From contig NC_009954.1 in NCBI RefSeq assembly GCF_000018305.1, positions 1,890,001 through 1,922,000 on the forward strand: a DNA stretch of 32,000 nucleotides. Direction: 5' to 3'. Positions 33 through 23,714 of this stretch are shown piece after piece. This DNA comes from Caldivirga maquilingensis IC-167. Its GTDB lineage: Archaea; Thermoproteota; Thermoprotei; Thermoproteales; Thermocladiaceae. The notes under the pieces were generated by a model. The model saw only the letters and a list, made by a program, of their open reading frames with translations. It ran no database searches and was not told where the DNA came from. The position numbers and the translations under genes were made by a program. Position 1 is the stretch's first letter; every line of letters begins with the position of its first letter.

Positions 33-356
33 GTGATGGAGTACGTAATGAAGCTAAGGGCCAGGTGGGGCAAACTCACGGCAATACTCTACGGATCATA
101 CGCAAGGGGCGACTTCAACCTATGGAGCGACGTCGACGTAATACTCATAACGGAGCACTTCAGGGGCAGGGAATTCATAACCAGGTGCGTGGAATTAATC
201 GACACACCACCAAGGCTAGAACCCATATGCTGGACCCCTGAGGAGGCCAGGAAGGCCATGAAGAAACCCTGGCGGATTGAGGCACTACGGACATCCATCA
301 TCCTAATTGATGACCATGGCTTAGCGAGACCATGGATGCAATGGGTAACGGTTTAA
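33..356 (+). CDS. Minimal nucleotidyltransferase (MNT type, the antitoxin-like partner in HEPN-MNT modules). The frame is open to the left window edge, so the true start may lie upstream.
   Basis: The pol-beta NTase signature 'LYGSYARGDFNLWSDVDVILI' (GSxxxG...DxD) is present. The roughly 107 aa size is typical. In-frame codons 3..32 contain no stop. Confidence 0.8.
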   Translation: MMEYVMKLRARWGKLTAILYGSYARGDFNLWSDVDVILITEHFRGREFITRCVELIDTPPRLEPICWTPEEARKAMKKPWRIEALRTSIILIDDHGLARPWMQWVTV

Positions 357-587: not shown

Positions 588-2030
588 TCATGTTGGAATG
601 GCCTCTTCCTCCGTCCTATACTTCCTCGCATCGAATCCGAGGACCGCACCTATCACTGCAGTGATAAATGCGAATGTTGCCAGGAAGTGTAATGTATTCA
701 CTACGCCGATCGAGCTGAACAGAATGGGTGCCCAGAAGGAGCTTACAACTGCCGCCAGTTTACTGAAGAAGTAGTTCCAGCCACCTGCTGTACCTCTCTC
801 ACTAGGTCCGTATGCCGTGTTTATCATTACGTATGACTGTACACCATTGGGTCCCATTACGTGGAACACCAAGAATGTTGTAGCGAAAAATACTATCAGT
901 GGCACTATCTTGGGCGGCAATACGAAGGATGCCGCAAGCATCGAGATACCAGTACCCAGTGTACCTATGACGTATAGATTCTTCGTACCAAGTCTCGGAA
1001 CAAGATATGCCGTAGCAATGCCCGCCGCGAATCCCGCAACATTTATTATGGTAGTTGAGACTAGGGTAGCCAGTGAGCCTATTTTTGAAAGCACCAATAA
1101 GATATATGGAGTATAGAAACCGAAGGAGTAAAACTCGATTCCACCCTCGAAGGTGCCTATAAAGGTACTGGTGAGTTCCTTCCACTTACTCCTCCTGAAT
1201 ATCCTAAACAAGCTCCTGAAACCACGAACCTTGTGTATATCCAAGTCAACATCCGGTACATCCTGTAAATCTATTCCATATACCTGCTTAATTATTCGTT
1301 TCGCCGTAGCTAATCTACCCCTATATGCTATCCAAAGCACCGATTCAGGTATCCTTGATCTAAACAGAAGAATTATGAAGGCAGCAATACCGCCAATAAC
1401 CATGATGGCCCTCCATATTATTGGGTGCGTTAATGAATGTAGTGCAAAATACAGTGGAAAAACTATGAATACTATGGCAAACACCACAGAACCAAACCAA
1501 TATGCATCAAAACCGCCAGAGAACACGAGTCTCTTATTGAACTCAAGGAACTCGAAGATGTAGCTAAACCCCGTAACTATGTCTGCACCTAACGCATAAC
1601 CCAGCAATATCCTGAATATTGAGAACGTGTAGGGATCCGGTGCCAAACCAGCACCAATAGCCATAGCTACGAACAGGATCATGTTAAGTATAAGCATGTT
1701 CCTCCTGCCTATCCTATCATTCAACCACCCACCCGTCAGAGCACCTATCGTAGCTCCTATTTGTATGGAAGCTATGGCAAATCCAAAGAGGGCGGAGGAC
1801 ATCCATGGCCATGTGTTCTTGAATGCTGCCGTTGCTAGTGAAAATGCGCTGAAATCATACGCATCGAGAAATAGGGAGGCTATGGCTATGCCAATTATGA
1901 AGTATGGAGTAACGTGGCTCTGGGCAAGAACGACCTGGTATATTCTTTTTATACCCCTCTCTATGTCTTCTCTAGTGTAACCGGGTTGACTAGCCACATT
2001 AGCGATTAATCGACTTGTGTTTATATACAT
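588..2030 (-). CDS. MFS transporter (metabolite/sugar:H+ symporter-like)
   Basis: 480 aa polytopic protein with the MFS loop 2-3 signature 'GGWLNDRIGRRNMLI'. About 12 hydrophobic segments are visible in the translation. Confidence 0.85.
   Translation of the reverse strand: MYINTSRLIANVASQPGYTREDIERGIKRIYQVVLAQSHVTPYFIIGIAIASLFLDAYDFSAFSLATAAFKNTWPWMSSALFGFAIASIQIGATIGALTGGWLNDRIGRRNMLILNMILFVAMAIGAGLAPDPYTFSIFRILLGYALGADIVTGFSYIFEFLEFNKRLVFSGGFDAYWFGSVVFAIVFIVFPLYFALHSLTHPIIWRAIMVIGGIAAFIILLFRSRIPESVLWIAYRGRLATAKRIIKQVYGIDLQDVPDVDLDIHKVRGFRSLFRIFRRSKWKELTSTFIGTFEGGIEFYSFGFYTPYILLVLSKIGSLATLVSTTIINVAGFAAGIATAYLVPRLGTKNLYVIGTLGTGISMLAASFVLPPKIVPLIVFFATTFLVFHVMGPNGVQSYVMINTAYGPSERGTAGGWNYFFSKLAAVVSSFWAPILFSSIGVVNTLHFLATFAFITAVIGAVLGFDARKYRTEEEAIPT
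1017..1103. repeat. Copy 1 of an exact 87-bp direct repeat, internal to the MFS coding sequence
   Basis: The string 'aatgcccgccgcgaatcccgcaacatttattatggtagttgagactagggtagccagtgagcctatttttgaaagcaccaataagat' is identical at 1017-1103 and 4425-4511. Confidence 0.95.
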
Positions 2031-2123
2031 TTTTTAAACTTCTTAAATAAAAACCATCAACCATACCAGTGATTACTCCTCAATAAATACAAGAAATCCA
2101 TTATTGCTATAAGCCTAGAATTT

Positions 2124-3209
2124 TTATCCCTCCACAACTGATCCTAGTTTGAACCTCCTTAGCTCTGCACCATAGGGATTTATTATTAGTTTGATTACCT
2201 CATCATTATTAATCAGTTCCCTGAAGTAATCGTTAATTTTGATTAAGGGTATCTCAATAATGGGCATCCTGTATAAGTATTCATACTTCTCTTTATGCAT
2301 ATTATAGAGAATCTCTATTGCATTTATGAAATCACTTGGATTATATATTATGGATCCCTCTATGTGGATCTCCCTCCGTACGACTGCATAAAGATCTATA
2401 TTCACATTTTTTTGCCCTAAGCCTAGAATAACCGACCTTATTCCTGATGGCAATATATTCGATATACTCATTATGTCCGATATACTACTATTATTACCTA
2501 CTGTATCGACTATCTTTAGCCCGTTTAAATAAGGAAATTCAAGCGGATAATCATAAATACTACTCAGTATGTGCACTAAATCGCCAAACACCTCTCTCAG
2601 TATGTGTACTTTCTTAATATTTATTTCCTTTATAAATATGTTTACCTTATCTCTTAGTTCGTGGAGTAATAACATTGTGGTTAGATGCCCCAGTGCACCG
2701 CCACCGATGATCAATATATTATCGCCGGGTTTAGGATCTATTTTCTTCATTGCATGGATAACTACTGCTAAGGGCTCGGTTAATACTGCCTCATAGTTAC
2801 TCAAGGAGTCGGGTACCTTGAATAAATACTTACTTTCAACATCCATGTATTCTGAGAGGGCTCCAGGCGCATTAACGCCAATACTTACTTTATTTTTACA
2901 AGTATTGAAGTGACCCACCTTACAATCAATACATGAGTCGCACCAATAATTGGGAAAAACCACAACCCTATCATTAATTTTAAGGCTGTTAGATCCATCT
3001 TCCTCCGCTATATTGACTACTTGAGCGACAATCTCGTGGCCTATCACTAGGGGGTACTTTATTCCCTCTCTATGGCCCCTACATATTTCCTTATCAGTAC
3101 CACAAACACCCACTAGTAACGGCCTAATTAATACATGCCTAGGGGGTGCCTCCTTTATGTCTTTTCTATGAAATACGCAATCCTTATCAAGCTCATACTG
3201 CCACATCAT
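2124..3209 (-). CDS. Zn-dependent medium-chain dehydrogenase/reductase (alcohol, polyol or threonine dehydrogenase family)
   Basis: Catalytic Zn motifs 'GVCGTDKEI' and 'GHEIVAQV'. Structural Zn cluster 'CDSCIDCKVGHFNTC'. Rossmann motif 'IIGGGALGHL'. Confidence 0.85.
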   Translation of the reverse strand: MMWQYELDKDCVFHRKDIKEAPPRHVLIRPLLVGVCGTDKEICRGHREGIKYPLVIGHEIVAQVVNIAEEDGSNSLKINDRVVVFPNYWCDSCIDCKVGHFNTCKNKVSIGVNAPGALSEYMDVESKYLFKVPDSLSNYEAVLTEPLAVVIHAMKKIDPKPGDNILIIGGGALGHLTTMLLLHELRDKVNIFIKEINIKKVHILREVFGDLVHILSSIYDYPLEFPYLNGLKIVDTVGNNSSISDIMSISNILPSGIRSVILGLGQKNVNIDLYAVVRREIHIEGSIIYNPSDFINAIEILYNMHKEKYEYLYRMPIIEIPLIKINDYFRELINNDEVIKLIINPYGAELRRFKLGSVVEG

Positions 3210-3997
3210 AATTCACCCATAATTCTTACAAAGTCTAACATATGCGACAGAGGGATCTGGCCAGACGCTGATTTACCCATTAGGTCGACGAAAACTAAAT
3301 CTGAACCGAATATCGGCGTCAACACCCTACCTACCTTCCCCCTCTCCCCCATGGTTAGCGTTATCAGGGGCTTCCTTAATTTAGCCCTCAAGTCATGGGT
3401 CACTCGAAGCATTGTTATGATATCGCTGAAATCACGCGCCATGGTGGCGATCTTAAGGATATCTGCACCCACAGCCGCCTCCTCCTCACCAATCCTATAT
3501 AATGTATCATAATCCGGTGTATTATTAAAGTCATGGTAAGATACTATTAACCCTATACCCTCATCTTTAGAGTACTTTAGGATCGATGAAGCATAATATC
3601 TCATTTCAGGATCCTTAAATACATACAACTCCACATCTAGTATTGTTGGTTTGTATTTCACTATGATATCTAAAATCATCTTCAGCCTAAGGTGGTCCGG
3701 AATTTCATAAACACCCCCCTCTCTGGGTGACCTGAAGGTGAATATGTAGGGGAACCCGAGATTATTAAGTTGTAAAAGGATATTTGATGGAGATAAATCC
3801 TTGTTTTCCATCAATAAGTAATCATACCTTATCTCCAAGATATGGATGCCCTTCTCTTTAGCTATATTAACTATTTCACTAATATCATTAAACCCCTTAA
3901 GGCTAATCACTGGTGCAGCGATTATTACATTATTATCTCCAAAGACTATACCATGTACATTAACTGCCTTCTCCAGAGTATACCTCAAGGCGAACAC
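3206..3997 (-). CDS. aroD: Type I 3-dehydroquinate dehydratase-like protein (AroD fold). It sits in a catabolic-looking operon, so it may not be the biosynthetic aroD.
   Basis: AroD-type motifs 'LEIRYDYL', 'ILDVEL', 'VSYHDFNNTP' (catalytic His region), 'ADILKIATMA' (Schiff-base Lys region) and 'LTMGERGKVGRVL..FGS'. It overlaps the downstream dehydrogenase by 4 nt. Confidence 0.75.
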   Translation of the reverse strand: MFALRYTLEKAVNVHGIVFGDNNVIIAAPVISLKGFNDISEIVNIAKEKGIHILEIRYDYLLMENKDLSPSNILLQLNNLGFPYIFTFRSPREGGVYEIPDHLRLKMILDIIVKYKPTILDVELYVFKDPEMRYYASSILKYSKDEGIGLIVSYHDFNNTPDYDTLYRIGEEEAAVGADILKIATMARDFSDIITMLRVTHDLRAKLRKPLITLTMGERGKVGRVLTPIFGSDLVFVDLMGKSASGQIPLSHMLDFVRIMGEL

Positions 3998-4002
3998 CCC
4001 TC

Positions 4003-4377
4003 TTACTCCTTAGGAAGCTCGCCTGGTGGTGAGTAAATCCATAACAGTATCAGCGGCTTGTCACAAGTGTTTATATGTCTATGTTCAACTCCTTTGGGTA
4101 TAAACATGAAGTCATGTTCCTTAAAGGGCCTCCTCTCTCCCTCAGACTCTACTTCCCCACAACCTTGAACTACAAAGTCAATCTCCTCAGAATTTGGGTG
4201 GGAATGTAAGGAACTAGATTCACCAGGCTCAAATATGGTGATCCCAGCGACAAACATCGTACTCCCCGTTAATTGGGGGCTAATAGTCCTAAAAACCTTC
4301 CTTATTTCTCCAGGCTTGTTACCAAGCCATATTTTTTCGGCATCCCTATATGGGTTTATTATTAGTATCTTCATCAA
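4003..4377 (-). CDS. Small single-domain cupin protein. The likely true start is ATG at 4374, since 4377 is a TTG.
   Basis: Cupin metal-binding motifs 'SSLHSHPNSEEIDFVVQGCGEV' and 'FIPKGVEHRHIN'. It lies 5 nt upstream of the AroD-like gene. Confidence 0.75.
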   Translation of the reverse strand: MMKILIINPYRDAEKIWLGNKPGEIRKVFRTISPQLTGSTMFVAGITIFEPGESSSLHSHPNSEEIDFVVQGCGEVESEGERRPFKEHDFMFIPKGVEHRHINTCDKPLILLWIYSPPGELPKE

Positions 4378-4424
4378 GAATACCTTCTCAGAATACCTTA
4401 ATAAGACTTTATTTAAGAAGTTTT

Positions 4425-4511
4425 AATGCCCGCCGCGAATCCCGCAACATTTATTATGGTAGTTGAGACTAGGGTAGCCAGTGAGCCTATTTTTGAAAGC
4501 ACCAATAAGAT
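4425..4511. repeat. Copy 2 of the exact 87-bp direct repeat. It is an orphan fragment of the MFS gene in the ThDP-enzyme/cupin intergenic spacer.
   Basis: Identical to 1017-1103 in the same orientation. It ends 10 nt from the ThDP-enzyme stop (4522) and starts 1 nt after a promoter-like 16-mer (4408-4423). Confidence 0.95.
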
Positions 4512-4521
4512 GCAATGTCAA

Positions 4522-6309
4522 TTACTCAATGTTCTCTCTCCTATCGAACATATAGATCAACTTACCATGATATATCTCGCTTATTGACCAGTGACCTGTA
4601 ACGGGTACATCAGGCTGCAGTGCAGTTGGCACCTCAACCACAACAGGCTCACTCAACTTTATGGCCTCGTTTAATGCATCTAACAATTCACTGGGCCTCT
4701 CGATCCTCATACCCTTAACCCCTGAGGCCTCGGCTATTTTTACAAAATCAGGATTATACAGTCGTTTATACTTATCATAAAATGCTGTACCGATGTACCT
4801 CTCCCCGTAATGAATCCTCTGTATATTCTGTATCGTACCGAAACTATAATTATTCAGCACTAAGAACACCACAGGTATTTCGTATTGCTTGGCCGTAAAT
4901 AGGCATGTTACCGTGCTAGTGAATCCTCCATCACCCACGACACTAATTACCTTCAGGTTAGGGTTACCCAACTTAACGCCGAGAGCTGCAGGCGGCGCAA
5001 ACCCCATGATGGCGAGGCCAGCTGTTGTTATATAGTTATGGGGTTTCGTGATCCTCAAGAACTGGGCTATGCCATTCTTGGGCCACCCAACATCAGTGAC
5101 TAATGATATATTCTCATCTTTCTTAATTAACATCTGAAGTACCTTAACTATATAATCAGGCCTTATGGGTGTATTCTCTGCGGTTACCGACATAAAATCT
5201 TCCCAATACTTATCGTACACTTCCTTGAACGAGTTGAACCATGGAGAACGCTCAACCTTACCCTTCCTTATTAAGTTCCTTAGTTGGTCTATGATCTCAC
5301 GCAAGGTGGCCTTTATGTCGCCCAGTAGGAAAAGGTCCTCAGGGAAACTCTTACTTTGCTCCTTCTCATCTATATCTATTCTCAGAAGTCTTGATTTAGA
5401 GAAATCGAAAGTGTACCCATAGATCCATGAGCTTGAGTTAACTTCGCCAAAACGAGTACCTAGGGCTATAACCAAATCCGCCTCCAGTAACGCTTTATTC
5501 GCGGCGGGATTACCCCAACCACCAGCAAAGCCCAGCGCAAGGGGATGATCCTCAGGGAACGTTCCCTTACCACCCATGGTAGTAACGACAGGAGCATTAA
5601 GTAGTTCCGCAAACTCCAGTAATTCCGGCTCTGCTTCTGAAAGTCTAACGCCACCACCTGCCAGTATGACGGGTCTCTCACTCCTAAGGATCATGTTTAT
5701 GGCCTCATTTATTTTCTCAGGGGAGGGCCTTATCCTTAAGTCATTCAATCTATGTAATCTCCTATAGATGCCGTGCTTATTTGTCTTGAGACTGAATATC
5801 TCCATGGGTATATCCACCAACACGGGCCCTGGCCTATTCGATAATGCTAAGGAGAAGGCCCTATCAAGTATTCTCTCAAGGTTATGTACATGATGCACCT
5901 GCCAGACCCTCTTTACGAAGGGCAAGTATGTTAGGTGTTGAGACAAGTCAATCAATAGATTGATCTCTTGATGGGCGCCAGCACCCTCATATATGGATGG
6001 GGCATCTCCAGATATGATTATCATGGCACTAGAATCTAACGCGGCGTTAGCAACAGCGGGTACCGCATTCAAAAGACCAGGACCCACATGAGTAACCACG
6101 ACGCCCGGTTTATGCGTTACCCTGAAATAACCATCCGCCATATACGCGGCTACTGCCTCGTGCCTCACCTGGATCAGGTTTATATCTGGGCTGTATAATG
6201 CATCATAAAGATCTACTATAGTATGTCCAGTTAATGTGAATACGTACTCAACTTTTTGTCTCTCCAAATACTTAACTATTACTTCTGACCCTCTTAATTC
6301 ATTCATCAT
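4522..6309 (-). CDS. Thiamine-diphosphate-dependent enzyme of the acetolactate synthase / IolD / oxalyl-CoA decarboxylase superfamily. Specificity cannot be resolved from the sequence alone.
   Basis: 595 aa. The N-terminal PYR domain reads 'VRHEAVAAYMADGY...GPGLLNAVPAVANAALDSSAMIIISGD'. The ThDP-binding motif reads 'VVGDGGF...LNNYSFG'. Confidence 0.85.
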   Translation of the reverse strand: MMNELRGSEVIVKYLERQKVEYVFTLTGHTIVDLYDALYSPDINLIQVRHEAVAAYMADGYFRVTHKPGVVVTHVGPGLLNAVPAVANAALDSSAMIIISGDAPSIYEGAGAHQEINLLIDLSQHLTYLPFVKRVWQVHHVHNLERILDRAFSLALSNRPGPVLVDIPMEIFSLKTNKHGIYRRLHRLNDLRIRPSPEKINEAINMILRSERPVILAGGGVRLSEAEPELLEFAELLNAPVVTTMGGKGTFPEDHPLALGFAGGWGNPAANKALLEADLVIALGTRFGEVNSSSWIYGYTFDFSKSRLLRIDIDEKEQSKSFPEDLFLLGDIKATLREIIDQLRNLIRKGKVERSPWFNSFKEVYDKYWEDFMSVTAENTPIRPDYIVKVLQMLIKKDENISLVTDVGWPKNGIAQFLRITKPHNYITTAGLAIMGFAPPAALGVKLGNPNLKVISVVGDGGFTSTVTCLFTAKQYEIPVVFLVLNNYSFGTIQNIQRIHYGERYIGTAFYDKYKRLYNPDFVKIAEASGVKGMRIERPSELLDALNEAIKLSEPVVVEVPTALQPDVPVTGHWSISEIYHGKLIYMFDRRENIE

Positions 6310-6447
6310 GGATTAATCGTTTAGGTTATATTTTTATGTTTCTTTAACATGTTTAATTTCTCGGCCACTAAGTTATGGTGACCATTAAAGGCTCATTGAA
6401 TATATTAAAAAAACATTTAAAGGTACCAATTAGGGACAACACATCGT
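6310..6447. promoter_or_regulatory. Divergent promoter region between the ThDP-enzyme gene (-) and the HMGL-like gene (+)
   Basis: The TATA-like 'atttaaag' at 6415-6422 ends 25 nt before the ATG at 6448. On the minus strand, 'ataaaaatat' (6328-6337) lies about 18 nt upstream of the start at 6309. This spacing fits leaderless archaeal transcripts. Confidence 0.35.
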
Positions 6448-7515
6448 ATGATAATCGATGACACCTTAAGGGAGGGTTTGCAGGCACCTGGTATCTCATT
6501 CACTGTTGAGGAGAAGATCGAGTTAGCTAAATTAATCAGTAATGCTGGCGTAGATGAAGCCATTGTTTCCCACCCATCTGCACATGAGTCTGAGGTTGAG
6601 GTTACAAGGATCATTGTGGAAAGGAACTATTTTAAGTACGTGTTCGGCCTCGGTAGGGCATTAAAGGAGGATATTGATTTAATAGCGAGTACCGGTGCTA
6701 ATATCAGCACGTATATACCATTTGAGCCTCAATTGGTTAATAAATCCCTCGATGTCATTAAGTACGCCGTTAATACCTACGGTAAGGGTAAATTGATAAT
6801 TGAAGTGGGTATTACGAATATAACCGCTTATGAGTTAAGCAATATCGTTAAGTTAGCTAAGACCCTGGAGGAGCTGGGTGTCGATAGGATTCAACTTGCG
6901 GATTCCCTAGGTAAGGCCACGCCGAAACTCATGTACAATATTGTAAATAACGTGAAGCATACCGTAAAGATTCCAGTCAGCGTGCACTGCCATAATGATA
7001 TGGGTGCTGCGGTAGCTAACTCAATAAGTTCAGTATACGCTGGTGCTGATTATGTGGATGCAACAATCTACGGTATAGGTGAGAGGAATGGTATAGCCGA
7101 TTTAGCCACAATAGCCATGATACTGAGAAACGATAGTTACAGGATAAACATTGATTTCGAAAAACTTAGAGATGCATATAACTACTTAGCTAAATTAATA
7201 ATCGATAAGATTGATATCGAGTTCTTTAGAAATAATTTCCCAGTATTTGGTAATAATATATCTATACAAACCGCCGGCACACACGCAGCTTATCCAGGGG
7301 TATTTAAGGAGGTGGGGTATTCGCTTAATGTATACGTGGGTAGGTCCACATTACGTAAAGTGCTATCTGAACTCGGTATATCCCTTAACGATCAGGAATT
7401 ATTAATGCTCATGAGGAAGATTAAGGATACAGCCGTAAGGACAGGTAGAGCTGTAACTTATGACCAATTACTGCGACTCATCAATGAGATTAAGGGTGAG
7501 TTACATGGTTCTTGA
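6448..7515 (+). CDS. DRE-TIM metallolyase (HMG-CoA lyase, citramalyl-CoA lyase, or homocitrate/isopropylmalate synthase-like catalytic domain only)
   Basis: N-terminal 'IIDDTLREGLQ' (DxTLRDG-Q motif) and 'HCHNDMGAAVANSISSVYAGADYVDATIYGIGERNG'. At 355 aa it has no LeuA-type regulatory domain. Confidence 0.8.
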   Translation: MIIDDTLREGLQAPGISFTVEEKIELAKLISNAGVDEAIVSHPSAHESEVEVTRIIVERNYFKYVFGLGRALKEDIDLIASTGANISTYIPFEPQLVNKSLDVIKYAVNTYGKGKLIIEVGITNITAYELSNIVKLAKTLEELGVDRIQLADSLGKATPKLMYNIVNNVKHTVKIPVSVHCHNDMGAAVANSISSVYAGADYVDATIYGIGERNGIADLATIAMILRNDSYRINIDFEKLRDAYNYLAKLIIDKIDIEFFRNNFPVFGNNISIQTAGTHAAYPGVFKEVGYSLNVYVGRSTLRKVLSELGISLNDQELLMLMRKIKDTAVRTGRAVTYDQLLRLINEIKGELHGS

Positions 7516-8623
7516 GATAAAGCCCATAGTTCTTGAGCTTGGACAAATCGTAGCAGGACCCACAGCTGGATTGATACTCGCTGATCTAGGCTTCAACGTC
7601 ATAAAGATAGAGCAACCAGGTCGTGGGGACATAGCGAGATACCTTACTGGGCCTAGTGAGGGGCACTTTGCATTCTTTAACAGGGGTAAGAGGAGTATGA
7701 CCCTTAACCTGAAGACAGAGGAAGGTAGAGAGATATTTCTTAAATTAGTTAAGAGATCGGATATTATAATCGAGAATATGGGCTATGGCACCATGGAGAG
7801 ATTAGGCATTGGTTATTCCGTATTGAGTAAGATTAATCCAGGGATTATTTACTTATCCATAAAGGGCTACGGGAGTGGGCCATACGAGGACAGGAATGCA
7901 TTAGATTACCCAATTGAGATTGAGTCTGGGGTTGCTTATATGAATGGCTTAAGCAATAAGCCAATGAGGCTAGGGGCCTCCATCATAGATATTGCAGCGG
8001 CCATGTTTGGGGTAATTGGAGTACTTCATGCATTATTAGAGAGGGAGAGGACCGGTAAAGGCACATTCATTAAGATTGGATTGTTTGAGACAGCCATGTT
8101 CCTCATGGGCCAACACATAGCTGCTTACCAAGCCAGGGGATTTGTACCCCTGAAGCCTATGAATGAGGAGGGATTTGCATGGGCAATCTATGATTTCTTC
8201 GAGACAGCCGATGGTAAAAGAATATTCATAGCAATAACCACAGATGCCCAATGGCATAGATTCTGTGAACTCTTTAAACTACCCATATGCGAATCACCCG
8301 ACTACTCGACAAATGAGGCAAGATATCAACGTAGAAGTGAGCTCATACCTATGGTAGCAGAAGCCATAAGAAGGCTTCGTAGTGATGAGTTAATTCATGT
8401 GCTAAGGCAAAACGGTATCAGTTACGCCGTACTGAATACACCATGGGATTTATTGAATGATCCTCATGCATCCAAAAAATTAATCAGCATCAATTATAGA
8501 CAGAAACAGATTAAGGTACCAGTAACGCCATTAGAGAGTGATACAATACGATACAATGACGCGGATCCGCCTGAGCTTGGAGATAGCACGGAGATAATAC
8601 TTAAAGAGCTTGGTTATAGTTAA
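7505..8623 (+). CDS. Family III CoA-transferase (CaiB/BaiF/Frc family)
   Basis: 'VLELGQIVAGPTAGLILADLGFNVIKIEQPGRGDIAR' matches the family III N-terminal signature. I chose the ATG at 7505 ('MVLEIKP...'), which overlaps the upstream stop by 11 nt. The track ORF starts at 7460. Confidence 0.85.
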   Translation: MVLEIKPIVLELGQIVAGPTAGLILADLGFNVIKIEQPGRGDIARYLTGPSEGHFAFFNRGKRSMTLNLKTEEGREIFLKLVKRSDIIIENMGYGTMERLGIGYSVLSKINPGIIYLSIKGYGSGPYEDRNALDYPIEIESGVAYMNGLSNKPMRLGASIIDIAAAMFGVIGVLHALLERERTGKGTFIKIGLFETAMFLMGQHIAAYQARGFVPLKPMNEEGFAWAIYDFFETADGKRIFIAITTDAQWHRFCELFKLPICESPDYSTNEARYQRRSELIPMVAEAIRRLRSDELIHVLRQNGISYAVLNTPWDLLNDPHASKKLISINYRQKQIKVPVTPLESDTIRYNDADPPELGDSTEIILKELGYS

Positions 8624-8688
8624 TGAAGATATAGATTAATGAAGATATAGATTAATGAAGATATAGATTAATGAAGATATAGATTAAT
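8621..8688. repeat. Perfect tandem repeat: 16-bp unit 'taatgaagatatagat' x4 plus a 4-nt partial fifth copy
   Basis: Read directly from the sequence. The first unit begins with the TAA stop of the CoA-transferase gene. The array ends 78 nt before the HTH regulator start. Confidence 0.95.
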
Positions 8689-8765
8689 AATTAAAGGTGT
8701 CATTTAAATAAGAAAAGTAGTAATGTTTTTATATTTCTTATTTAATTTGAAAGTAACGGGTTTCT

Positions 8766-9449
8766 ATGTATCTAGTTACTTTAAGGATTCACAGCGGGTG
8801 CGGACTAGCTATGGCCGCGAAGGTTGTGCAATCCCGCATTATATCAATAAATGCTTATCCAATTAATGATAAAATGAACATAGTGCTCGCACTTTTTAAG
8901 GTGGACAAAAAAGAGGATGATGTTATGGCTATTAGGTCATTAAAGAGGGATTTCTTAAAACTATCTAACTTATCGCTGCATGAGAATAATAACAAAAAGT
9001 ATTATGTTATTTCCGGTGTAAAAAGTGGTCATGGTGTGCTTTATCCACTGGTTAAGCATAATGCAATACCGTTATTGCCTTACATTGCATTGCCTAATGC
9101 TGAGTCCTTCATCTTCTTACATCACGATAAGAGTACCATAGACGACATCGTCGATGAAGTAAGTCATAAAAATAAACTGGAATATTTTGACTATAAAAGG
9201 ATAAGTAATGGAAATGATATAATGAGGATAATCACTAAAAACTTCAATGAAATATACCTCTACGATCTTGATGATTATGAGCGTAAGGTGCTGAAAATAG
9301 CTATCAATATGGGTTATTTCGATTGGCCTAAGCGTGTAAAAATAGATGAAATAGCTAGAGAATTGGGTGTTTCGAAACCCATGATTTCCTATTACCTTAG
9401 GAAGGCCAGTAGAAATATTTTTGACAAAATGGGGCTGAGGCGTTTCTAA
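8766..9449 (+). CDS. Transcriptional regulator with a C-terminal HTH_10 (bacterio-opsin activator-like) domain
   Basis: The C-terminus '[49 protein letters not shown]' matches the Bat-type HTH pattern (GYFD-xPR ... ela..lgis..t...hlr). I do not recognise the N-terminal about 165 aa. Confidence 0.7.
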
Positions 9450-10285
9450 TGAATACGGAGGCCCATGTTAAGGACGGCTTGCACTGGCTCTCATGCTTCA
9501 AGGCTCAGCAGGTGGCTGAGTTCTCACTAAGGTCAATACTAAGGGCGCTTGGGAGACCAGCCTTCGGGCACAACCTAGTGGCGTTCCTAAACGAGTTAGC
9601 GGGCATTTGCCCAGGGCTCACGACCGAGCTCAGGTTCTGTGTGGGTTACCTGGATAAGATGTACGTAAGTGGATTCAACTATGGCGATATTGAGAAGGCA
9701 CCGCCGCATAGGTTGGTTAAGGAGTACGGTGTTACCCACGAGAAGCTTTGGAATAACCTTAGGGAGTTCCTTGAGTATATAGTGCCAATTGCGGAGCAGA
9801 GTAATGTTAAGATAGCAATGCACCCCGATGATCCACCAATACCCGAGTTTAGGGGTATACCGAGGATCATGAATTCCATTGAGTCCTTTGAGAAACTACT
9901 GATCCTAGTCAGGAGTGATTATAATGGTATAACTCTATGTCAAGGAAACTTCACATTAATGACTGACGACCTACCAAGCGTCATTAAGAGGTTTAGGGAT
10001 AGGATATTCTTTGTGCATTTCAGGGATGTTAAAGGTGATAGGTATAATTTCGTGGAGACGTTGATAGGTGAGGGTAAGACGGACCTGGTGGGGGTCATGA
10101 GGGCGTACGTGGAGATTGGCTATAATGGTTACGTTAGGGTTGATCACACACCAACCCTTGAGAATGACGCAGAATTAGGTGCACCTGGTTATAACTACCT
10201 GGGTAGAATCTACACAATAGGTTATATTAAGGGCCTTTATGAAGCAGTTAAGAGGGAATTTAGTAAGGAGATATTAAATGCATAA
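9449..10285 (+). pseudogene. Chimeric ORF: a truncated HEPN core (about aa 1-72) fused in frame to the C-terminal two thirds of mannonate dehydratase (UxuA)
   Basis: HEPN part: '[34 protein letters not shown]...YLDKMYVS', with Rx4H in 'RPAFGH'. UxuA part: '[25 protein letters not shown]', 'FFVHFRDV', 'VRVDHTP...[10 protein letters not shown]'. This is collinear with E. coli UxuA from about residue 215 to the end, as recalled from memory. The UxuA N-terminal half is absent. Confidence 0.7.
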
Positions 10286-10327
10286 GATAGCACCCTTAAA
10301 TTACTTAAGGGTCATTTTGTTGAGTTA

Positions 10328-11685
10328 ATGGTTAAGGAGCAATTAATTAACGAGCTAAGGAAGCTCGGCATGACGTATGAGTTTGGTGAGAGGAGGGATT
10401 TCATAGGATTCCCTGTAAACCCCTGGTAATTGTTTATCCTCGTAATGAGCAGGACGTCATTGCCTTGGTGAAACTCGCTAATGAGTATAAGGTGCCTGTA
10501 ATACCGTGGGGTGCTGGGACAAGTCTCACTGGTGCGTTGTCATGTGATGGTTGCGTCTTAATTGATATGAAAATGATGAATAGTGTTCTCGAAGTTAATA
10601 CTGTTGATTGGTATGTTAGAGTTCAACCAGGGATAATCCTTGATAGACTTAACGAGGAACTTGCAAGGTACGGCTTCTTCTTCCCAGTGGATCCAGCGAG
10701 CCATTACATGTGCACTGTGGGGGGTATGATTGCAACTGGTGCTGGTGGAATGAGGGCTCTGAGGTACGGAACCATGAAGGACTGGGTCCTGGCGCTCAAG
10801 GTTGTTTTACCCATGGGTGAAGTTGCTCAATTCGGTGAACCACTGAGGAAGGATAGGGCAGGCTATGATCTGGTTCATCTATTCATCGGCAGTGAGGGTA
10901 CCCTTGGGATTATAACTGAGGCATGGCTTAGAATAATACCGATACCGAAGAAGTCATTCACCACGTTGCTAATAGGTATTGAAAATGAGGATGAACTTGG
11001 TAAGTTGGTGGTGAAGATTAGGGAGGGTGGCTTGTTACCTGAGTTGATGGAGTACATGGACTATTACTCAATAATGGCTGTTAATAAGGTATTCAATGGT
11101 AATTTACCTGAAGCACCTGGTGGATTATTGATTATTCGAATAGAGGGCGAGTACATGGACGACTTAATGAACATAGTGAAACATGTTGGATTGCAAAATG
11201 TTAAAACATTGGTAAGTGAAGAAGAGGCTAAGGAGGTTTTAATGCTTAGGTCAAGGGCTGGTGAGGCTATAAAGGCATTCTATGGGAACTTCTTCTCAGA
11301 GGATTTATCGCTACCTATCTCGAGGATTACTGATGCAATTAAGGAGGTGAGGAGGGTGGAGCGGATTATGGGGAAACCAATACCAATACTAGCACACATT
11401 GGTGATGGTAATATGCACCCGCACATACTTATTGAGCCAGGTAAGGAGGAAGAGGCAGATAGGGTATATGAGGAGCTTTGTAGAATAGCAATTAAGATTG
11501 GCGGTAGTATAACGGGGGAGCATGGTGTTGGGCTTCAAAAAGCCCGATTACTCTATGAGCAGTTTAAGTCACGTAATAACCTAAAGGCATTACTAATTAT
11601 GAGGAGGATCAAGGAGTTAATGGATCCAAACGATATAATGAACCCCAATAAATACGTAGAATTATCCTTAAAATATACGAATTAA
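10328..11685 (+). pseudogene. FAD-linked oxidase (GlcD / D-lactate dehydrogenase family) interrupted by a frameshift near 10405-10430
   Basis: A 33-aa ORF (10328-10429, 'MVKEQLINELRKLGMTYEFGERRDFIGFPVNPW*') looks like the family N-terminus. The FAD-binding domain continues in another frame from 10390 ('KPLVIVYPRNEQDVIALVKLANEYKVPVIPWGAGTSLTGA'). The C-terminal 'GEHGVGLQKARLL' is intact. The track ORF starts at a TTG (10465). Confidence 0.7.
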
Positions 11686-11938
11686 TACTCATGACATGCT
11701 TGGATTATACCTGCCATTCATGGCCTTCCTCTCATCATTCATGAATACGAGTACCACGGAACCAACCACATTATTAAACCTAATGACACAGTACCTAAAG
11801 GCCTTATTACCACCAACCCTATAAACAACTACCAAAATCTTAACACCGTCCATAACCCATAATACCGAGGAACCCTAATATAAATCCAGATAAGCTAGGT
11901 AATTCTTAAAAATTAAATAAAATATCTACTTGTCAGTT

Positions 11939-13042
11939 ATGGTTCATTTTGTTCTAAATAAGCAAGACGTTGAGGATTTAGTTGTTGGCGCCGCTATACT
12001 TGGTACCGGCGGTGGTGGCGATCCATATATTGGTAAATTAATGGTTCTTCAGGAATTAGAACGCGGTAGAAAAATCGAAGTTGTTAGTATCGACGAGATT
12101 GATGATGAGGCCTTCATAATACCCGTAGCCGCTATGGGAACGCCTGTAGTTCTAATGGAGAAGATACCCAGCGGCAAGGAGGCATTGTTCTCACTTAATT
12201 TATTAGAGAAGTACTTTAATAGAAAGGTGGACTTTATATCACCAATTGAGGCTGGTGGTGTTAATTCCACGATACCTCTTGTGGTGGCAGCAGAAAGGGG
12301 ATTGCTTGTTATTGATGCTGATGGTATGGGTAGGGCATTTCCCGAACTTCAAATGGTCACTTTTCACATATACGGAATAAAAGCAACACCAATGGCTCTT
12401 TCTGATGAACGTGGTAATGCAATTATACTTGATGCTATTGATAACTTCTGGGCTGAAAGGATAGCTAGAACTGTAACCGTTAGATTTGGTGGCTCTGCTT
12501 GGATAGCTATCTATCCAACTTATGGGAAACCATATAAAGATGCTGCTGTGAAGGGCAGTATATCATTTGCGATTGAAATAGGTAGAACACTAAGGGATGC
12601 AAAGATCACTGGCAAGAATCCAATTGATGCATTGCTAGATGTAACTAAGGGTTATGCCCTATTTAAAGGTAAGATCATTGATGTGCAAAGGTTTAATATA
12701 GGTGGTTTTGCAAGAGGTGAGGCTGTGATTGAAGGGCTCGATGAATATAAAGATTCAAAGATTACTATTAAATTTCAAAATGAAAATCTCGTAGCAATTA
12801 AGGATGGAGAGATTATAGCATCGGTACCCGATTTAATAACAGTACTTGATAGTGAAACCAGTAAACCCATAACCACAGAGAGACTTAGATATGGTTTAAG
12901 GGTTATCGTAATTGGTATACCGTGCAATGAAAAATGGAGAAATCCAAGAGGTCTAGAAGTTGTAGGGCCTAAGTACTTTGGTTATGACATTGATTATGTA
13001 CCCATTGAAATGAGAGTTAAGAAAATAGGTGGTGTGGCATGA
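11939..13042 (+). CDS. DUF917 family protein (Pfam PF06032-type, a usual partner of hydantoinase-like proteins)
   Basis: Characteristic N-terminal 'VVGAAILGTGGGGDPYIGKLM'. It overlaps the downstream HyuA-like gene by 4 nt (ATGA). The track ORF begins at TTG 11930, and the first ATG is 11939. Confidence 0.8.
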   Translation: MVHFVLNKQDVEDLVVGAAILGTGGGGDPYIGKLMVLQELERGRKIEVVSIDEIDDEAFIIPVAAMGTPVVLMEKIPSGKEALFSLNLLEKYFNRKVDFISPIEAGGVNSTIPLVVAAERGLLVIDADGMGRAFPELQMVTFHIYGIKATPMALSDERGNAIILDAIDNFWAERIARTVTVRFGGSAWIAIYPTYGKPYKDAAVKGSISFAIEIGRTLRDAKITGKNPIDALLDVTKGYALFKGKIIDVQRFNIGGFARGEAVIEGLDEYKDSKITIKFQNENLVAIKDGEIIASVPDLITVLDSETSKPITTERLRYGLRVIVIGIPCNEKWRNPRGLEVVGPKYFGYDIDYVPIEMRVKKIGGVA

Positions 13043-14610
13043 CAAAGTACAAGATTGGTATTGATGTTGGTAGCACACATACAGATGCTGTGATACTTGA
13101 TGAAAATAATAATTTAATATATGCTGCTAAAACCATGACTACACCCGATGTTACATCAGGAATAATTAATGCATTAAAACTTATTCTTGAAAACTCCGGT
13201 ATTAGTAAAGATGATGTTGTAGCCGTAATGTTTGGAACTACGCACGTTATTAATGCAATAGTTCAAAGGAGAAATCTTGGCAGAGTCGGAGTAATTAGAA
13301 TCGGATTACCCGCTACTGAGGCTATAGTGCCTATGCTTGACTGGCCAAGTGATCTTAAAAATGCTATTCTAGCGAGTTCATACATGGTTAAGGGTGGTCA
13401 TGATTATACTGGCGAGCCTATTACTAATTTTGACGATAATAACATCAAAAGGATACTTAAGAATTTTACAGAAAAGGGAGTAGACGCTGTAGCGATTACA
13501 TCTGTATGGTCTATAGTTAATCCTGAACATGAAAATAAAGTTCTCGACATTGCTAAGGAGACTATGCCTAATACACCGATTGTTTTATCACATGAAATAG
13601 GTTCAATAGGACTTTTAGAAAGAGAAAACGCAACAATACTTAATGCCGCTACAATTAATGTCATGAAAAATGCCATTAATTCCCTTAAGAGCGCACTCAA
13701 TAGCATGGGATTAAGCCACGTTAAAATGTTTTTTGCACAGAATGATGGAACAACAGCCTCTGCTGACTATATAATGAGGTTCCCTATATTCACTGTCATA
13801 GCACCTATATCAAATAGTATACGCGGTGCCTATGTCTTAACAGGAATACCAAATGCTATAGTTGCTGATACTGGTGGCACAACAACAAACATAGGCGCAC
13901 TCGTTAATGGCTATCCACGTGAAGCCCTAGAAGTAGAGATTGGGGGTGTTAGAACAAATATTAGGGCGCCCGATATAATCGCCATAGGATTGGCAGGCGG
14001 TAGTATTGTTAGAGTCGAAGGCAATGATGTGAAGATAGGGCCTGTCAGTGTTGGGTATAGATTAATTTATGAAGGTATTGCATGGGGTGGTGAGACAATA
14101 ACGGCCACTGATATAGCACTTGCAAAGGGTGTTATGGTAATAGATGATCCACAATGTAAATCAGAACTTGCCAAAGCTAAGATACCTCAGTGGTTAGTTG
14201 AAAAAGCCTATGATAAGATGGTTAAGATGCTAGAGGATGCTCTAGATAAAATAAAGACAAGGCCAGAGCCTGAAACTGTGATTCTGGTAGGTGGAGGATC
14301 TGCCATGTGGCCAAGAAGATTAAAGGGTGCTAAGGAGGTTATTAGACCCGATAATGCACAATACGCAAATGCCATAGGTGCAGCAACAGCATTAGTAGGT
14401 GCAACAGTAGAGAAAGCGTATTCTTATGAAAAAACCTCTAGAAGTGATGCTATTAATGATGCATCTAAAGAAGCCATTCTACGAGCAATACAGGCCGGTG
14501 CCGATCCAGCTACCGTAGAGATTGCCGAAGTTGAAGAAATAGCAATGCCATATTTACCAGGAAATGCTGTTAAGGTTAGGGTTAAAGCTGTTGGTAAATT
14601 GAAAATTTAA
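13039..14610 (+). CDS. Hydantoinase/oxoprolinase family protein (HyuA-like, ASKHA fold)
   Basis: N-terminal 'IGIDVGSTHTDAVILD', 'VMFGTTHVINAIVQR', and 'ADTGGTTTNIG' (second phosphate-binding motif). 523 aa. Confidence 0.85.
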   Translation: MTKYKIGIDVGSTHTDAVILDENNNLIYAAKTMTTPDVTSGIINALKLILENSGISKDDVVAVMFGTTHVINAIVQRRNLGRVGVIRIGLPATEAIVPMLDWPSDLKNAILASSYMVKGGHDYTGEPITNFDDNNIKRILKNFTEKGVDAVAITSVWSIVNPEHENKVLDIAKETMPNTPIVLSHEIGSIGLLERENATILNAATINVMKNAINSLKSALNSMGLSHVKMFFAQNDGTTASADYIMRFPIFTVIAPISNSIRGAYVLTGIPNAIVADTGGTTTNIGALVNGYPREALEVEIGGVRTNIRAPDIIAIGLAGGSIVRVEGNDVKIGPVSVGYRLIYEGIAWGGETITATDIALAKGVMVIDDPQCKSELAKAKIPQWLVEKAYDKMVKMLEDALDKIKTRPEPETVILVGGGSAMWPRRLKGAKEVIRPDNAQYANAIGAATALVGATVEKAYSYEKTSRSDAINDASKEAILRAIQAGADPATVEIAEVEEIAMPYLPGNAVKVRVKAVGKLKI

Positions 14611-15560
14611 GACGAATCACCTAAACCTCTTCTCATGATTTCACTTAATTCGCCATAAGTGTTTTTTAAAATGTTCCATTCATTTTCATCATAAAACTTC
14701 ATCTTACCTGTAGTAAATTCATAAGCAACCTCTAATATGAATCGTGATGCTTGATCCAGTGATATTAAATTTGTGACGTTAGTAGCAGAGCCTGGTATTA
14801 CTGTTTCCGTAGTAATGGCAACACCAACTACAGGTGATTTCGTGAATAACCATGGTTGTACTATACTGTTTATATGATAAACAGGTACCGTAAATGGTAT
14901 TATATCCTGCATAGTTAACGGTACAATGATGGGGGTTCTACCAGTTACATTCATGTATATTTTTATCAAGTCAGGGCTTACCTTCAATATCCATCCCTCC
15001 TTAACAGTTGGTGTTATCGCGAAACCTAAATTCTTAACAACTAAATTAGCCTTTGTGGCATCAACACTTAGTATTGCATCCATTTCAGGTTTAACCTCTC
15101 TCCTTAAAATTTCAAATAAATTAATAGGGCTTCTTATTAATGGTGCAGGTTCATGCGGTATTACTATGGCATTGGGGCAAATATTAGTCGTTATGATAAC
15201 ATCCCCGGGTAATGCATCACCCCTACGGGCCATCTCTGCTATTTTATAAGCAACAGCTAATGCTGTAATTACACCATCTGCATCAGAAACAAGCCCTTTA
15301 ATTGTTGGTCTAGCACTAATACCACCAGCTCTGCCAGTAATACCCAGTGTTGGTGCTGTCCCACCTAATTTTTTACCTTGTGCGCCTGGTATTAAAATAG
15401 TTACCAAGTCAACAGAACCATCATTACCTTTAATGGTTTCAACATCAACCCTTAAGTAATTAGAATATTTTGCTTCAAGGAAATCCTTGACTCTATAGCC
15501 ATCAATTTTAGGATCTTCTAAAATATCAATTACCTCTATTAAGTATTTAACCATTGACAT
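14607..15560 (-). CDS. DUF1177-like conserved protein. The family assignment is from memory of gene-neighbourhood partners and is tentative. The maximal ORF extends to 15587.
   Basis: Long clean ORF. I prefer the start at 15560 ('MSMVKYL') because 'ctttttat' on the minus strand (plus 15586-15593) ends 25 nt upstream. The 15587 start would leave only 14 nt to the divergent gene. Confidence 0.6.
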   Translation of the reverse strand: MSMVKYLIEVIDILEDPKIDGYRVKDFLEAKYSNYLRVDVETIKGNDGSVDLVTILIPGAQGKKLGGTAPTLGITGRAGGISARPTIKGLVSDADGVITALAVAYKIAEMARRGDALPGDVIITTNICPNAIVIPHEPAPLIRSPINLFEILRREVKPEMDAILSVDATKANLVVKNLGFAITPTVKEGWILKVSPDLIKIYMNVTGRTPIIVPLTMQDIIPFTVPVYHINSIVQPWLFTKSPVVGVAITTETVIPGSATNVTNLISLDQASRFILEVAYEFTTGKMKFYDENEWNILKNTYGELSEIMRRGLGDSS

Positions 15561-23691: not shown

Positions 23692-23714
23692 TTAGGTGAG
23701 TTGATGCCATTTAA

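Follow-up and report, generated by a model that had tools for sequence, protein, structure and literature searches.

Eight genes at positions 588–9449 of a 32-kb stretch of the Caldivirga maquilingensis IC-167 chromosome (NC_009954.1, positions 1,890,001 to 1,922,000; the whole stretch is called the window below) probably encode a catabolic pathway of the quinate/shikimate type that is built on cleavage by a thiamine diphosphate (ThDP) enzyme, aldehyde oxidation, CoA transfer and a lyase. That the cluster serves uptake and O2-independent, non-aromatising breakdown of quinate and/or shikimate by the particular steps set out below is favoured at slightly better than even, and the exact intermediates assigned to those steps (a 1,2-dione, homocitrate and 2-oxoglutarate) are tentative and fall somewhat short of even. 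The broadest form of the proposal, a widespread and undescribed O2-independent route from quinate/shikimate to acetyl-CoA and 2-oxoglutarate that employs a new ThDP family and is modular across Thermoplasmata and many bacterial phyla, is a possibility put forward with reserve. The features of the cluster are as follows.

588–2030, minus strand: major facilitator superfamily (MFS) transporter, 480 aa; Pfam Sugar_tr/MFS_1
2124–3209, minus strand: Zn-dependent medium-chain dehydrogenase (Zn-MDR), 361 aa; ADH_N
3206–3997, minus strand: type I dehydroquinase, 263 aa; PF01487, TIGR01093
4003–4377, minus strand: small cupin, 124 aa; Cupin_2
4522–6309, minus strand: ThDP enzyme, 595 aa; three TPP domains
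6310–6447, no strand: intergenic region from which the ThDP and lyase genes diverge, read from the sequence
6448–7515, plus strand: DRE-TIM HMGL-like protein, 355 aa; HMGL-like 170 bits
7460–8623, plus strand: family III CoA-transferase, 387 aa as called; PF02515
8766–9449, plus strand: HTH_10 (Bat-type) regulator, 227 aa; PF04967

The initial annotation, made from the letters of the DNA, had placed these eight open reading frames (ORFs) and named their families; its coordinates are exact, and the family assignments hold in profile searches. The MDR gene overlaps the dehydroquinase gene by 4 nt, and 5 nt separate the latter from the cupin gene, which makes an operon plausible. The intergenic region 6310–6447 is A+T-rich and carries TATA-like boxes ~25 nt upstream of both divergent start codons (putative promoters).

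In the favoured scheme the MFS permease would import quinate or shikimate (step 1), and the Zn-MDR would oxidise the C3 hydroxyl, giving 3-dehydroquinate (DHQ) from quinate and 3-dehydroshikimate (DHS) from shikimate (step 2); the type I dehydroquinase would equilibrate DHQ and DHS, whereby shikimate carbon would reach DHQ (step 3). The metal cupin (in bacteria, a protein of the AP_endonuc_2 family) would then enolise the C3 ketone by abstraction of the C4 hydrogen and eliminate the C5 hydroxyl of DHQ (step 4), the product being 1-hydroxy-3,4-dioxocyclohexane-1-carboxylate, an alicyclic 1,2-dione. The same chemistry is carried out by IolE on inosose and by AsbF/QuiC on dehydroshikimate; here it would yield the dione rather than protocatechuate because C1 is still saturated (there is no C1=C2 double bond). 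The ThDP enzyme would split the C3–C4 bond by chemistry of the type used by IolD and cyclohexane-1,2-dione hydrolase (CDH) to give homocitrate semialdehyde (step 5), which an aldehyde dehydrogenase (ALDH) or aldehyde:ferredoxin oxidoreductase (AFOR) would oxidise to homocitrate (step 6); the family III CoA-transferase would form homocitryl-CoA (step 7), and the homocitrate-synthase-like DRE-TIM lyase would cleave it to acetyl-CoA and 2-oxoglutarate (step 8). The HTH_10 protein, the proposed cluster regulator, would control the divergent operons.

The gene set in archaeal and bacterial neighbourhoods

The nearest homologues of the ThDP enzyme (59–81% identity) belong to Thermoplasmata, where the genes are arranged in several ways. 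In loci L003, L004 and L009 the order MFS-ThDP-ALDH is convergent with MDR-DHQ_I-cupin (DHQ_I being type I dehydroquinase); the closest related locus, L006, reads cupin-DHQ_I-MDR-MFS-AFOR, with an MFS orthologue (68% identical) in the equivalent position and a ThiS-like gene also following it. In L007 and L008 a segment HTH_10 ... HMGL-CoA-transferase is divergent from cupin-DHQ_I-MDR and convergent with ALDH-ThDP-MFS. L027 and L109 hold other permutations of the core, CoA-transferase and HMGL included, and L107 has ThDP-ALDH, HTH_10 and HMGL-CoA-transferase. L026 and L108 combine MFS-ThDP-ALDH and MDR-cupin with a type II dehydroquinase that replaces type I, and L108 carries CoA-transferase-HMGL as well. 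One metagenome-assembled genome (MAG), DAHWLW01, carries the cluster twice, as L007 and as L009.

The inclusion of the divergently transcribed DRE-TIM lyase, CoA-transferase and HTH_10 gene in the cluster, as first annotated, is borne out by these loci: HMGL, CoA-transferase and HTH_10 are co-conserved in at least six archaeal arrangements (the window, L007, L027, L107, L108 and L109), and the three proteins can thus be regarded as belonging to the system. DRE-TIM orthologues (48% identical) adjoin the CoA-transferase in L007, L008 and L027, as do HMGL-like genes in L107–L109; CoA-transferase orthologues 57–59% identical occur in L007 and L027; and HTH_10 genes lie within or beside the cluster in L004, L007, L026, L027, L107, L108 and L109.

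In Thermoplasma acidophilum (L001; AL139299, locus 8600–11662) there is just an MFS gene together with a ThDP gene cut short at its C-terminus (553 aa, lacking TPP_enzyme_C), and sugar ABC transporter genes follow directly; the MFS–ThDP pair looks like the remnant of a decayed cluster. A further observation concerns L108 (GCA_049966575.1), where positions 7889–9630, between two HTH_10 genes and inside the cluster, encode LeuC/LeuD-like large and small subunits of the aconitase family; such a homoaconitase-like pair fits an intermediate of the homocitrate/homoaconitate type.

Bacterial ThDP homologues are 39–45% identical and are found in clusters with ALDH or AFOR, MDR, cupin or AP_endonuc_2, dehydroquinase of type I or II, CoA-transferase, lyase and TRAP or TTT genes. 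Examples are Aeribacillus (ALDH-MDR-ThDP-cupin-TRAP-LacI-shikimate-kinase-like), Shouchella clausii (GntR, GFO_IDH, TRAP, AP_endonuc_2, citrate-synthase-like, ALDH, MDR, ThDP, CoA-transferase) and a Thermodesulfobacteriota MAG (HMGL-like, TRAP, IclR, MDR, TTT, dehydroquinase II, cupin, ThDP, AFOR). Elsewhere than in L006 the transporter is a different MFS, TRAP or TTT uptake system, and in the bacterial loci regulators of the IclR, LacI or GntR type stand in place of HTH_10. Since TRAP and TTT systems serve uptake only and the regulators are of catabolic type, the pathway would be degradative. AFOR enzymes are typically oxygen-sensitive, and the occurrence of the set with AFOR in the Thermodesulfobacteriota MAG points to an O2-independent, non-aromatising route; the recurrent cluster neighbours include neither a ring-cleaving dioxygenase nor an orthologue of dehydroshikimate dehydratase.

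Co-occurrence was quantified in 80 metagenomic loci annotated with a phmmer panel, of which 26 extend at least 4 kb on either side of the ThDP gene and 59 are at least 8 kb long. In the 26 well-flanked loci ALDH or AFOR is near-constant (23/26), followed by a citrate-synthase-like or HMGL-like lyase (16/26), dehydroquinase and AP_endonuc_2 (12/26 each), CoA-transferase and MDR (8/26 each) and cupin (5/26). De novo clustering of unlabelled ORFs added two recurrent families, AroE-like shikimate/quinate dehydrogenases (19 loci) and pyrroloquinoline quinone (PQQ) dehydrogenases of the glucose/quinate/shikimate family (16 loci), and at least one quinate/shikimate marker gene is present in 49 of the 59 longer loci.

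The families do not combine at random. Ten of the 12 cupin loci also have MDR (p=3e-5), and AP_endonuc_2 accompanies an AroE-like dehydrogenase in 17 of 19 (p=4e-7); MDR is anti-correlated with the AroE-like dehydrogenases (p=0.005); AP_endonuc_2 is found in none of the 12 cupin loci as against 25 of the 47 others (p=6e-4); and citrate-synthase-like and HMGL lyases are mutually exclusive (p=0.014). The same functions thus alternate between unrelated families: dehydroquinase I or II (within archaea also), ALDH or AFOR, three kinds of lyase, and cupin with MDR or AP_endonuc_2 with an AroE-like enzyme. The grouping is not attributable to chance, because the same families recur in different orders around ThDP homologues in dozens of archaeal and bacterial loci, and the expectation that the neighbourhood would be conserved and would represent a catabolic cluster for an alicyclic (hydroaromatic) acid is supported by this strong co-conservation together with uptake transporters and catabolic regulators.

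The substrate was originally proposed to be a cyclitol such as inositol, with quinate or shikimate as the alternative; the comparison makes the alternative by far the more probable of the two, given the exchange of dehydroquinase types and the co-occurrence of AroE-like and PQQ dehydrogenases and of shikimate-kinase-like genes. The last are found in bacterial loci L022, L054, L084, L092 and L093, in four of the five beside a gene for a LacI-type regulator, which suggests a salvage branch from imported shikimate to aromatic amino acid synthesis.

Enzyme families and the proposed chemistry

The dehydroquinase is a bona fide member of the AroD family judging from its sequence: it scores 149.6 bits with TIGR01093 (cutoff 139.3), matches PF01487 over residues 37–254 (E=6e-45) and aligns over its whole length with solved AroD structures. 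The catalytic His and Lys motifs claimed at the outset are present as H155 and the Schiff-base K182, and both are invariant, as are E55, R57, R89, E93, M216, R224, S243 and Q247, with spacing that matches AroD (a 5-sequence alignment was used for the locus scan, an 8-sequence alignment being too divergent). The corresponding binding and catalytic residues of S. typhi AroD are presumably E46, R48, R82, E86, H143, K170, M205, R213, S232 and Q236. The protein is therefore proposed to interconvert DHQ and DHS. A type II dehydroquinase substitutes for it in archaeal loci L026 and L108 and in bacterial loci L023 and L025, the type II enzymes of the bacterial clusters exceeding the cutoff of their hidden Markov model (HMM). 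Because two unrelated dehydroquinase folds have been recruited and the substrate-binding residues are all conserved, DHQ/DHS is likely to be a real intermediate, and quinate and/or shikimate accordingly a likely substrate.

Upstream of this step, the top NCBIfam match of the MFS protein is the aromatic acid/H+ symporter family (93 bits, far under cutoff), and the protein is proposed to be a quinate/shikimate:H+ symporter. The Zn-MDR is of the polyol-dehydrogenase-like type, its PDB neighbours being RspB and xylitol, sorbitol and threonine dehydrogenases; the catalytic Zn ligands (C36/H58/E59/E145), the structural Cys4 site and the GGGxxG motif are conserved in an 8-sequence alignment. It is proposed to be a quinate/shikimate 3-dehydrogenase.

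The cupin is 51–63% identical between archaea and bacteria and has an invariant 3His-1Glu metal site (H58/H60/E64-E65/H99). It would act as an enolising dehydratase/isomerase on a cyclic alpha-hydroxyketone to yield the 1,2-dione. In the initial annotation it had been the counterpart of the isomerase IolB, and the dehydroquinase that of the dehydratase IolE. This mapping is revised here: as the cupin alternates with AP_endonuc_2 (IolE/IolI/QuiC-like), an IolE-type step before ring cleavage is more likely than an IolB-type isomerisation after it, and the dehydroquinase becomes the entry step for shikimate. The top PDB relatives of the bacterial AP_endonuc_2 proteins include inosose isomerase IolI and dehydroshikimate dehydratase QuiC1, the likeness to QuiC being weak (33 bits against a cutoff of 1200). 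A role of the cupin as a ring-cleaving dioxygenase was considered and rejected, since the gene set occurs with AFOR in the Thermodesulfobacteriota MAG and the cupin alternates with a TIM-barrel family that is not an oxygenase.

The ThDP enzyme represents, as far as sequence comparison can tell, a distinct, large and uncharacterised family that is orthologous neither to acetohydroxyacid synthase (AHAS) nor to IolD or CDH. AHAS models are its best named matches, and it falls below all NCBIfam cutoffs, including that of TIGR00118 (440.7 against 538.35 bits) and, by far, those of the other AHAS models. In the PDB it scores 266 bits with AHAS, ~207 with glyoxylate carboligase, 161 with CDH and ~160 with oxalyl-CoA decarboxylase. 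IolD is not among its best 25 NCBIfam models, which places any IolD score below 283 bits, and the N-terminal domain of CDH is absent among 58 matches to residues 6–171; the counterpart of IolD in the initial annotation, the protein is thus not its orthologue. An oxalate reading, with the pair taken as oxalyl-CoA decarboxylase and formyl-CoA transferase, was likewise rejected, as the enzyme is much nearer AHAS than oxalyl-CoA decarboxylase and its context is quinate-related.

An alignment of 14 archaeal and bacterial family members (40–81% identical) shows the catalytic Glu (E51), the GDG...NN ThDP motif, H29, H74 and H113-Q-E to be invariant; pairwise alignments place Gly, Thr/Cys and Phe from the AHAS active-site motifs PGG, T/C-S-GPG and F-Q-E at the positions of H29, H74 and H113. 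The family also has a 6-residue insertion after the HQE motif and a conserved C-terminal tail, P-x-x-G-x-W-x-I-x-(D/E)-(I/L)-Y, and a metagenome scan confirmed at least 574 relatives. The three His positions are ones that we take to be acid/base sites in related enzymes (D27 and H113/114 of pyruvate decarboxylase, S26 and H70 of benzoylformate decarboxylase, and near H29 of benzaldehyde lyase, BAL). With the AHAS active-site residues replaced and every AHAS cutoff missed, the enzyme is not AHAS, in agreement with the view taken of it originally; no regulatory-subunit (ilvN/ACT-domain) gene lies beside it, its neighbours being the cupin and the DRE-TIM lyase. The enzyme is proposed to cleave the C3–C4 bond of the ring. 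The near-constant aldehyde-oxidising neighbour suggests that the product is an aldehyde, and that neighbour, together with the lack of any other ring-opening candidate in the cluster, points to hydrolytic opening of a cyclic 1,2-dione.

C1 of quinate is already a centre of the citrate/homocitrate type: it carries a tertiary hydroxyl as well as the carboxylate and is flanked by two CH2 groups. On chemical grounds, opening of the ring at C3–C4 would turn it into a centre of the kind that acyl-CoA lyases attack, and a retro-Claisen lyase would thus be needed. The window DRE-TIM protein, which has no regulatory domain, resembles homocitrate/isopropylmalate synthase: its top NCBIfam matches (IPMS, LEU1_arch and homocitrate synthase) are all below cutoff (for example, 204 against 517 bits and 172 against 414 bits), and in the PDB it matches homocitrate synthases best, over the full length of the protein. 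It has the motifs DTLREG, HxH and GIGERNG. By these comparisons it is a divergent relative of the Claisen-condensing DRE-TIM synthases, and it is proposed to be a homocitryl-CoA (3-hydroxy-3-carboxyacyl-CoA) lyase; its likeness to homocitrate synthase fits the homocitrate scheme. The bacterial lyase slot is filled by the citryl-CoA-lyase family (334 bits, cutoff 261) or by the HMG-CoA-lyase subfamily (288–354 bits, cutoff 246). All three lyase types would be expected to cleave 3-hydroxy-3-substituted acyl-CoAs to acetyl-CoA and a carbonyl compound. Ring cleavage by way of dehydroshikimate was rejected for this reason, as it loses the tertiary alcohol that all three require.

The CoA-transferase matches PF02515 over its full length (330.8 bits, residues 24–375, profile of 366 positions) and reaches no equivalog cutoff; among characterised enzymes it comes closest to succinate-glutarate, succinate-hydroxymethylglutarate, mesaconate and oxalate CoA-transferases, and its true start is probably a few codons downstream of the called one. 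It would convert the tricarboxylate into the CoA ester on which the lyase acts, and the earlier suggestion that CoA transfer and a lyase take the place of the kinase and aldolase that end the iol pathway is retained.

Weighing the proposed route

Several points weigh against the favoured scheme. All of its chemical steps are deduced from family membership and gene neighbourhood. The window has no ALDH or AFOR, although one lies next to the ThDP gene in almost all homologous loci, and tblastn found no ALDH/AFOR remnant elsewhere in the 32 kb (nor an AP_endonuc_2 or type II dehydroquinase gene), so that the aldehyde oxidation is either encoded elsewhere or missing. For shikimate the dehydroquinase must run uphill, towards hydration; for quinate alone it is unnecessary, yet all archaeal loci whose sequenced stretch takes in the front-end genes have one. 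Thirteen PQQ-dehydrogenase loci mostly lack both cupin and AP_endonuc_2, and this step may therefore not be obligatory. An AroE-like dehydrogenase, a dehydroquinase and an AP_endonuc_2 protein also make up the classical protocatechuate-forming set, qsuD/C/B. In the lyase, the positions corresponding to Arg163 and Ser165 of homocitrate synthase are placed in different registers by different alignments; the Arg is presumably the residue that binds the distal carboxylate of 2-oxoglutarate in the S. pombe enzyme. The Fisher p-values given above ignore relatedness among loci and are thus optimistic and indicative only. As to novelty, the literature searched, the coverage of which was incomplete, yielded no account of a quinate/shikimate route that uses a ThDP enzyme or homocitrate.

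Other readings of the same genes are less able to account for them. An unlikely one keeps substrate and genes but follows the order of steps in the initial annotation: the ThDP enzyme would act straight on the alpha-hydroxyketone DHQ, or on a 3,4-dione that the MDR forms, with the C5 hydroxyl retained, after which the cupin or AP_endonuc_2 protein would act on the opened chain as an aldose-ketose isomerase of the IolB/Hyi type, and following CoA transfer the lyase would release acetyl-CoA and 4-hydroxy-2-oxoglutarate, the latter going on to pyruvate and glyoxylate. Cupins (IolB, KduI, PGI) and AP_endonuc_2 proteins (Hyi, IolI) are indeed well-known isomerase folds, IolI is among the top PDB matches of the bacterial AP_endonuc_2 proteins, the tight linkage of MDR and cupin would suit two successive tailoring steps, and His/Gln 29/114 of the ThDP enzyme adjoin what we take to be catalytic positions of BAL, an acyloin-cleaving enzyme. 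This course, however, needs two aldehyde oxidations or extra enzymes as well as a 4-hydroxy-2-oxoglutarate aldolase, none of which is conserved in the loci, and it is less parsimonious than a model with one job for each family.

The substrate might instead be some other compound (a cyclitol, carbasugar or sugar acid), the dehydroquinase, AroE-like and shikimate-kinase-like genes being promiscuous or passengers; we consider this rather unlikely. The MDR, cupin and ThDP enzymes are without close characterised relatives, bacterial loci L022 and L024 have no dehydroquinase, and GFO_IDH (IolG-like) genes are present in several loci, all of which would be compatible with such a substrate. It is hard to reconcile with the retention of all 3-dehydroquinate-binding residues in the window enzyme, with type II enzymes above cutoff in bacterial clusters, with a quinate/shikimate marker in 49 of 59 loci and with the independent recruitment of two unrelated dehydroquinase folds.

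The same exchange of folds bears on a reading that is distinctly improbable, in which DHQ is opened between C1 and C2 by a retro-aldol reaction to 3,7-dideoxy-hepto-2,6-diulosonate, the ThDP enzyme is an ordinary 2-oxoacid decarboxylase, and its product is oxidised as an aldehyde and passed through CoA transfer to a 3-hydroxyacyl-CoA that the lyase cleaves. Such an opening would run the ring closure of dehydroquinate synthesis backwards, and would be possible in principle for type I dehydroquinase, which has a class I aldolase fold and a Schiff-base Lys acting on C3; but type II dehydroquinase, of another fold and with no Schiff base, replaces type I, and the activity that the two share is dehydration only. 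ThDP decarboxylases are very commonly coupled to an ALDH that acts next, the ALDH/AFOR adjacency is the strongest signal in the loci (23/26), and His stands at positions that pyruvate and benzoylformate decarboxylases presumably use. Against this, the hydroxyl of the 3-hydroxyacyl-CoA would be secondary, which is not the case in the compounds on which citryl-CoA lyase, HMG-CoA lyase and enzymes of the homocitrate synthase type act, and the products would be awkward.

That there is no pathway, and that a biosynthetic aroD and an ilvB-like acetolactate synthase lie among unrelated genes by coincidence, is very improbable and already largely refuted by co-conservation: the dehydroquinase does pass the aroD HMM cutoff and AHAS large subunits are the best named ThDP models, but the ThDP enzyme misses every AHAS cutoff, lacks the AHAS active-site residues and has no ilvN neighbour, both archaea and bacteria have conserved the set along with transporters for uptake and regulators of catabolic type, DAHWLW01 holds two copies of it, and T. 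acidophilum retains only the decayed MFS and ThDP remnant. The scheme by way of dione and homocitrate appears the most economical of the readings, as it would give one job to each conserved family.

Few plant acids of low molecular weight reach soils, peat, sediments and guts in such abundance as quinate and shikimate, and the sole established microbial route known to us is aromatisation to protocatechuate followed by the action of oxygenases. Fermenting bacteria that use hydroaromatic compounds were reportedly isolated by Brune and Schink in 1992 (Arch Microbiol 158:320), and their route is said to proceed without aromatic intermediates; we know of no enzymology for it. If the proposal is true, it would supply the missing enzymology of an anaerobic, non-aromatic fermentation of hydroaromatic acids, and acidophilic Thermoplasmata would gain a role in the turnover of plant-derived carbon. 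The comparative data offer a concrete, testable gene set for a non-aromatising hydroaromatic route, with a new ThDP family that has at least 574 relatives in metagenomes, chemistry of the homocitrate type put to an unusual use in catabolism, and non-orthologous displacement exemplified at four steps; the JGI name 'acetolactate synthase' carried by many of the ThDP relatives would be corrected.

Genomic surroundings and comparison with known systems

The window has a G+C content of ~42% and archaeal gene content (ribosomal proteins S4e and L24, Nre, HTH_10 regulators). Within the cluster, positions 8615–8688 hold a near-perfect tandem array of the 16-bp unit TATAGATTAATGAAGA (4.7 copies, 98% matches), which covers the final 9 bases of the CoA-transferase ORF and much of the gap up to the HTH_10 gene, and could be an operator array or a product of slippage. 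The regulator gene is followed by an ORF of 278 aa (9449–10285, plus strand) in which a HEPN-like N-terminus (RX4H motif) is joined to the C-terminal half of UxuA mannonate dehydratase; this looks like the remnant of a rearrangement, and the truncated UxuA is the sole AP_endonuc_2-like sequence in the window. At the opposite end of the cluster lies an orphan gene for an MNT-type nucleotidyltransferase (33–356, plus strand). The MNT and HEPN genes that would form a toxin-antitoxin pair thus lie on either side of the whole 9-kb cluster, which may have been inserted as a block.

Farther along, positions 11930–18051 contain a second conserved-looking cluster (DUF917 of S-Me-THD-like type, hydantoinase A, DUF1177, an AroM-family protein and an NCS1-type permease), and at 20631–25390 the ribosomal protein genes are fragmented: L24-S4e-L5 is followed by the Nre gene, and between L5 and L6 stand tRNA-Arg(CCG), a PRC-barrel gene and two ORFs that match no family, but neither S14 nor S8.

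With respect to individual enzymes, the AHAS large subunit (IlvB/IlvI/IlvG) is the closest characterised family to the ThDP enzyme and shares its three-domain architecture, catalytic Glu (E51) and GDG...NN motif; the window enzyme differs in its sub-cutoff scores, H29/H74/H113, the lack of a regulatory-subunit gene and its catabolic context. CDH of Azoarcus belongs to this ThDP superfamily as well and converts an alicyclic 1,2-dione anaerobically to an omega-oxo acid, which is the chemistry proposed for the window enzyme, although the kinship in sequence is at superfamily level only (161 bits, against 266 for AHAS).

The proposed ending has counterparts in Chloroflexus, which has succinyl-CoA:D-citramalate CoA-transferase and R-citramalyl-CoA lyase, and in Hydrogenobacter, which has citryl-CoA lyase. 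As there, a family III CoA-transferase stands beside a lyase of DRE-TIM or citrate-synthase fold, and a 3-hydroxy-3-substituted acid would be converted to acetyl-CoA and a 2-oxoacid; unlike there, the archaeal lyase is nearer to homocitrate/isopropylmalate synthases than to HMG-CoA lyases, and homocitryl-CoA has, as far as we know, not been described as a lyase substrate.

With the classical qui/qsu/qa pathways the cluster probably shares its substrates and the first intermediates DHQ and DHS, and it has in common with them a catabolic dehydroquinase and, in many bacterial loci, AroE-like or PQQ dehydrogenases. The window, however, has no AroE-type or PQQ quinate dehydrogenase, no dehydroshikimate dehydratase and no protocatechuate dioxygenase, and in place of oxygenolytic ring cleavage the gene sets offer the ThDP enzyme, ALDH or AFOR, CoA-transferase and acyl-CoA lyase.

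The system closest in logic is iol (IolG-IolE-IolD-IolB-IolC-IolJ-IolA). No window protein is an Iol orthologue: GFO_IDH, an intact AP_endonuc_2 protein, an IolB-family isomerase, the IolC kinase and the IolJ aldolase are missing from the window, and the cupin matches Cupin_2 and generic cupin families, with no IolB-family match listed. The proposed substrate, moreover, bears a carboxylate on a tertiary alcohol, and its degradation would end with ALDH, CoA-transferase and a retro-Claisen lyase rather than with kinase and aldolase. The initial annotation is thus supported as regards the cluster, the CoA-dependent ending and an iol-like succession of dehydrogenase, dehydratase and ThDP-dependent C–C cleavage; the inositol substrate and the mapping of individual steps were not upheld, and an ALDH step has been added. 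What is proposed to be common to both systems is the passage from ring ketone by beta-elimination to a cyclic 1,2-dione, opening of the dione by a ThDP enzyme to an aldehyde-acid, and open-chain processing thereafter, and the bacterial versions of the cluster, like iol, use proteins of the AP_endonuc_2 and GFO_IDH families.

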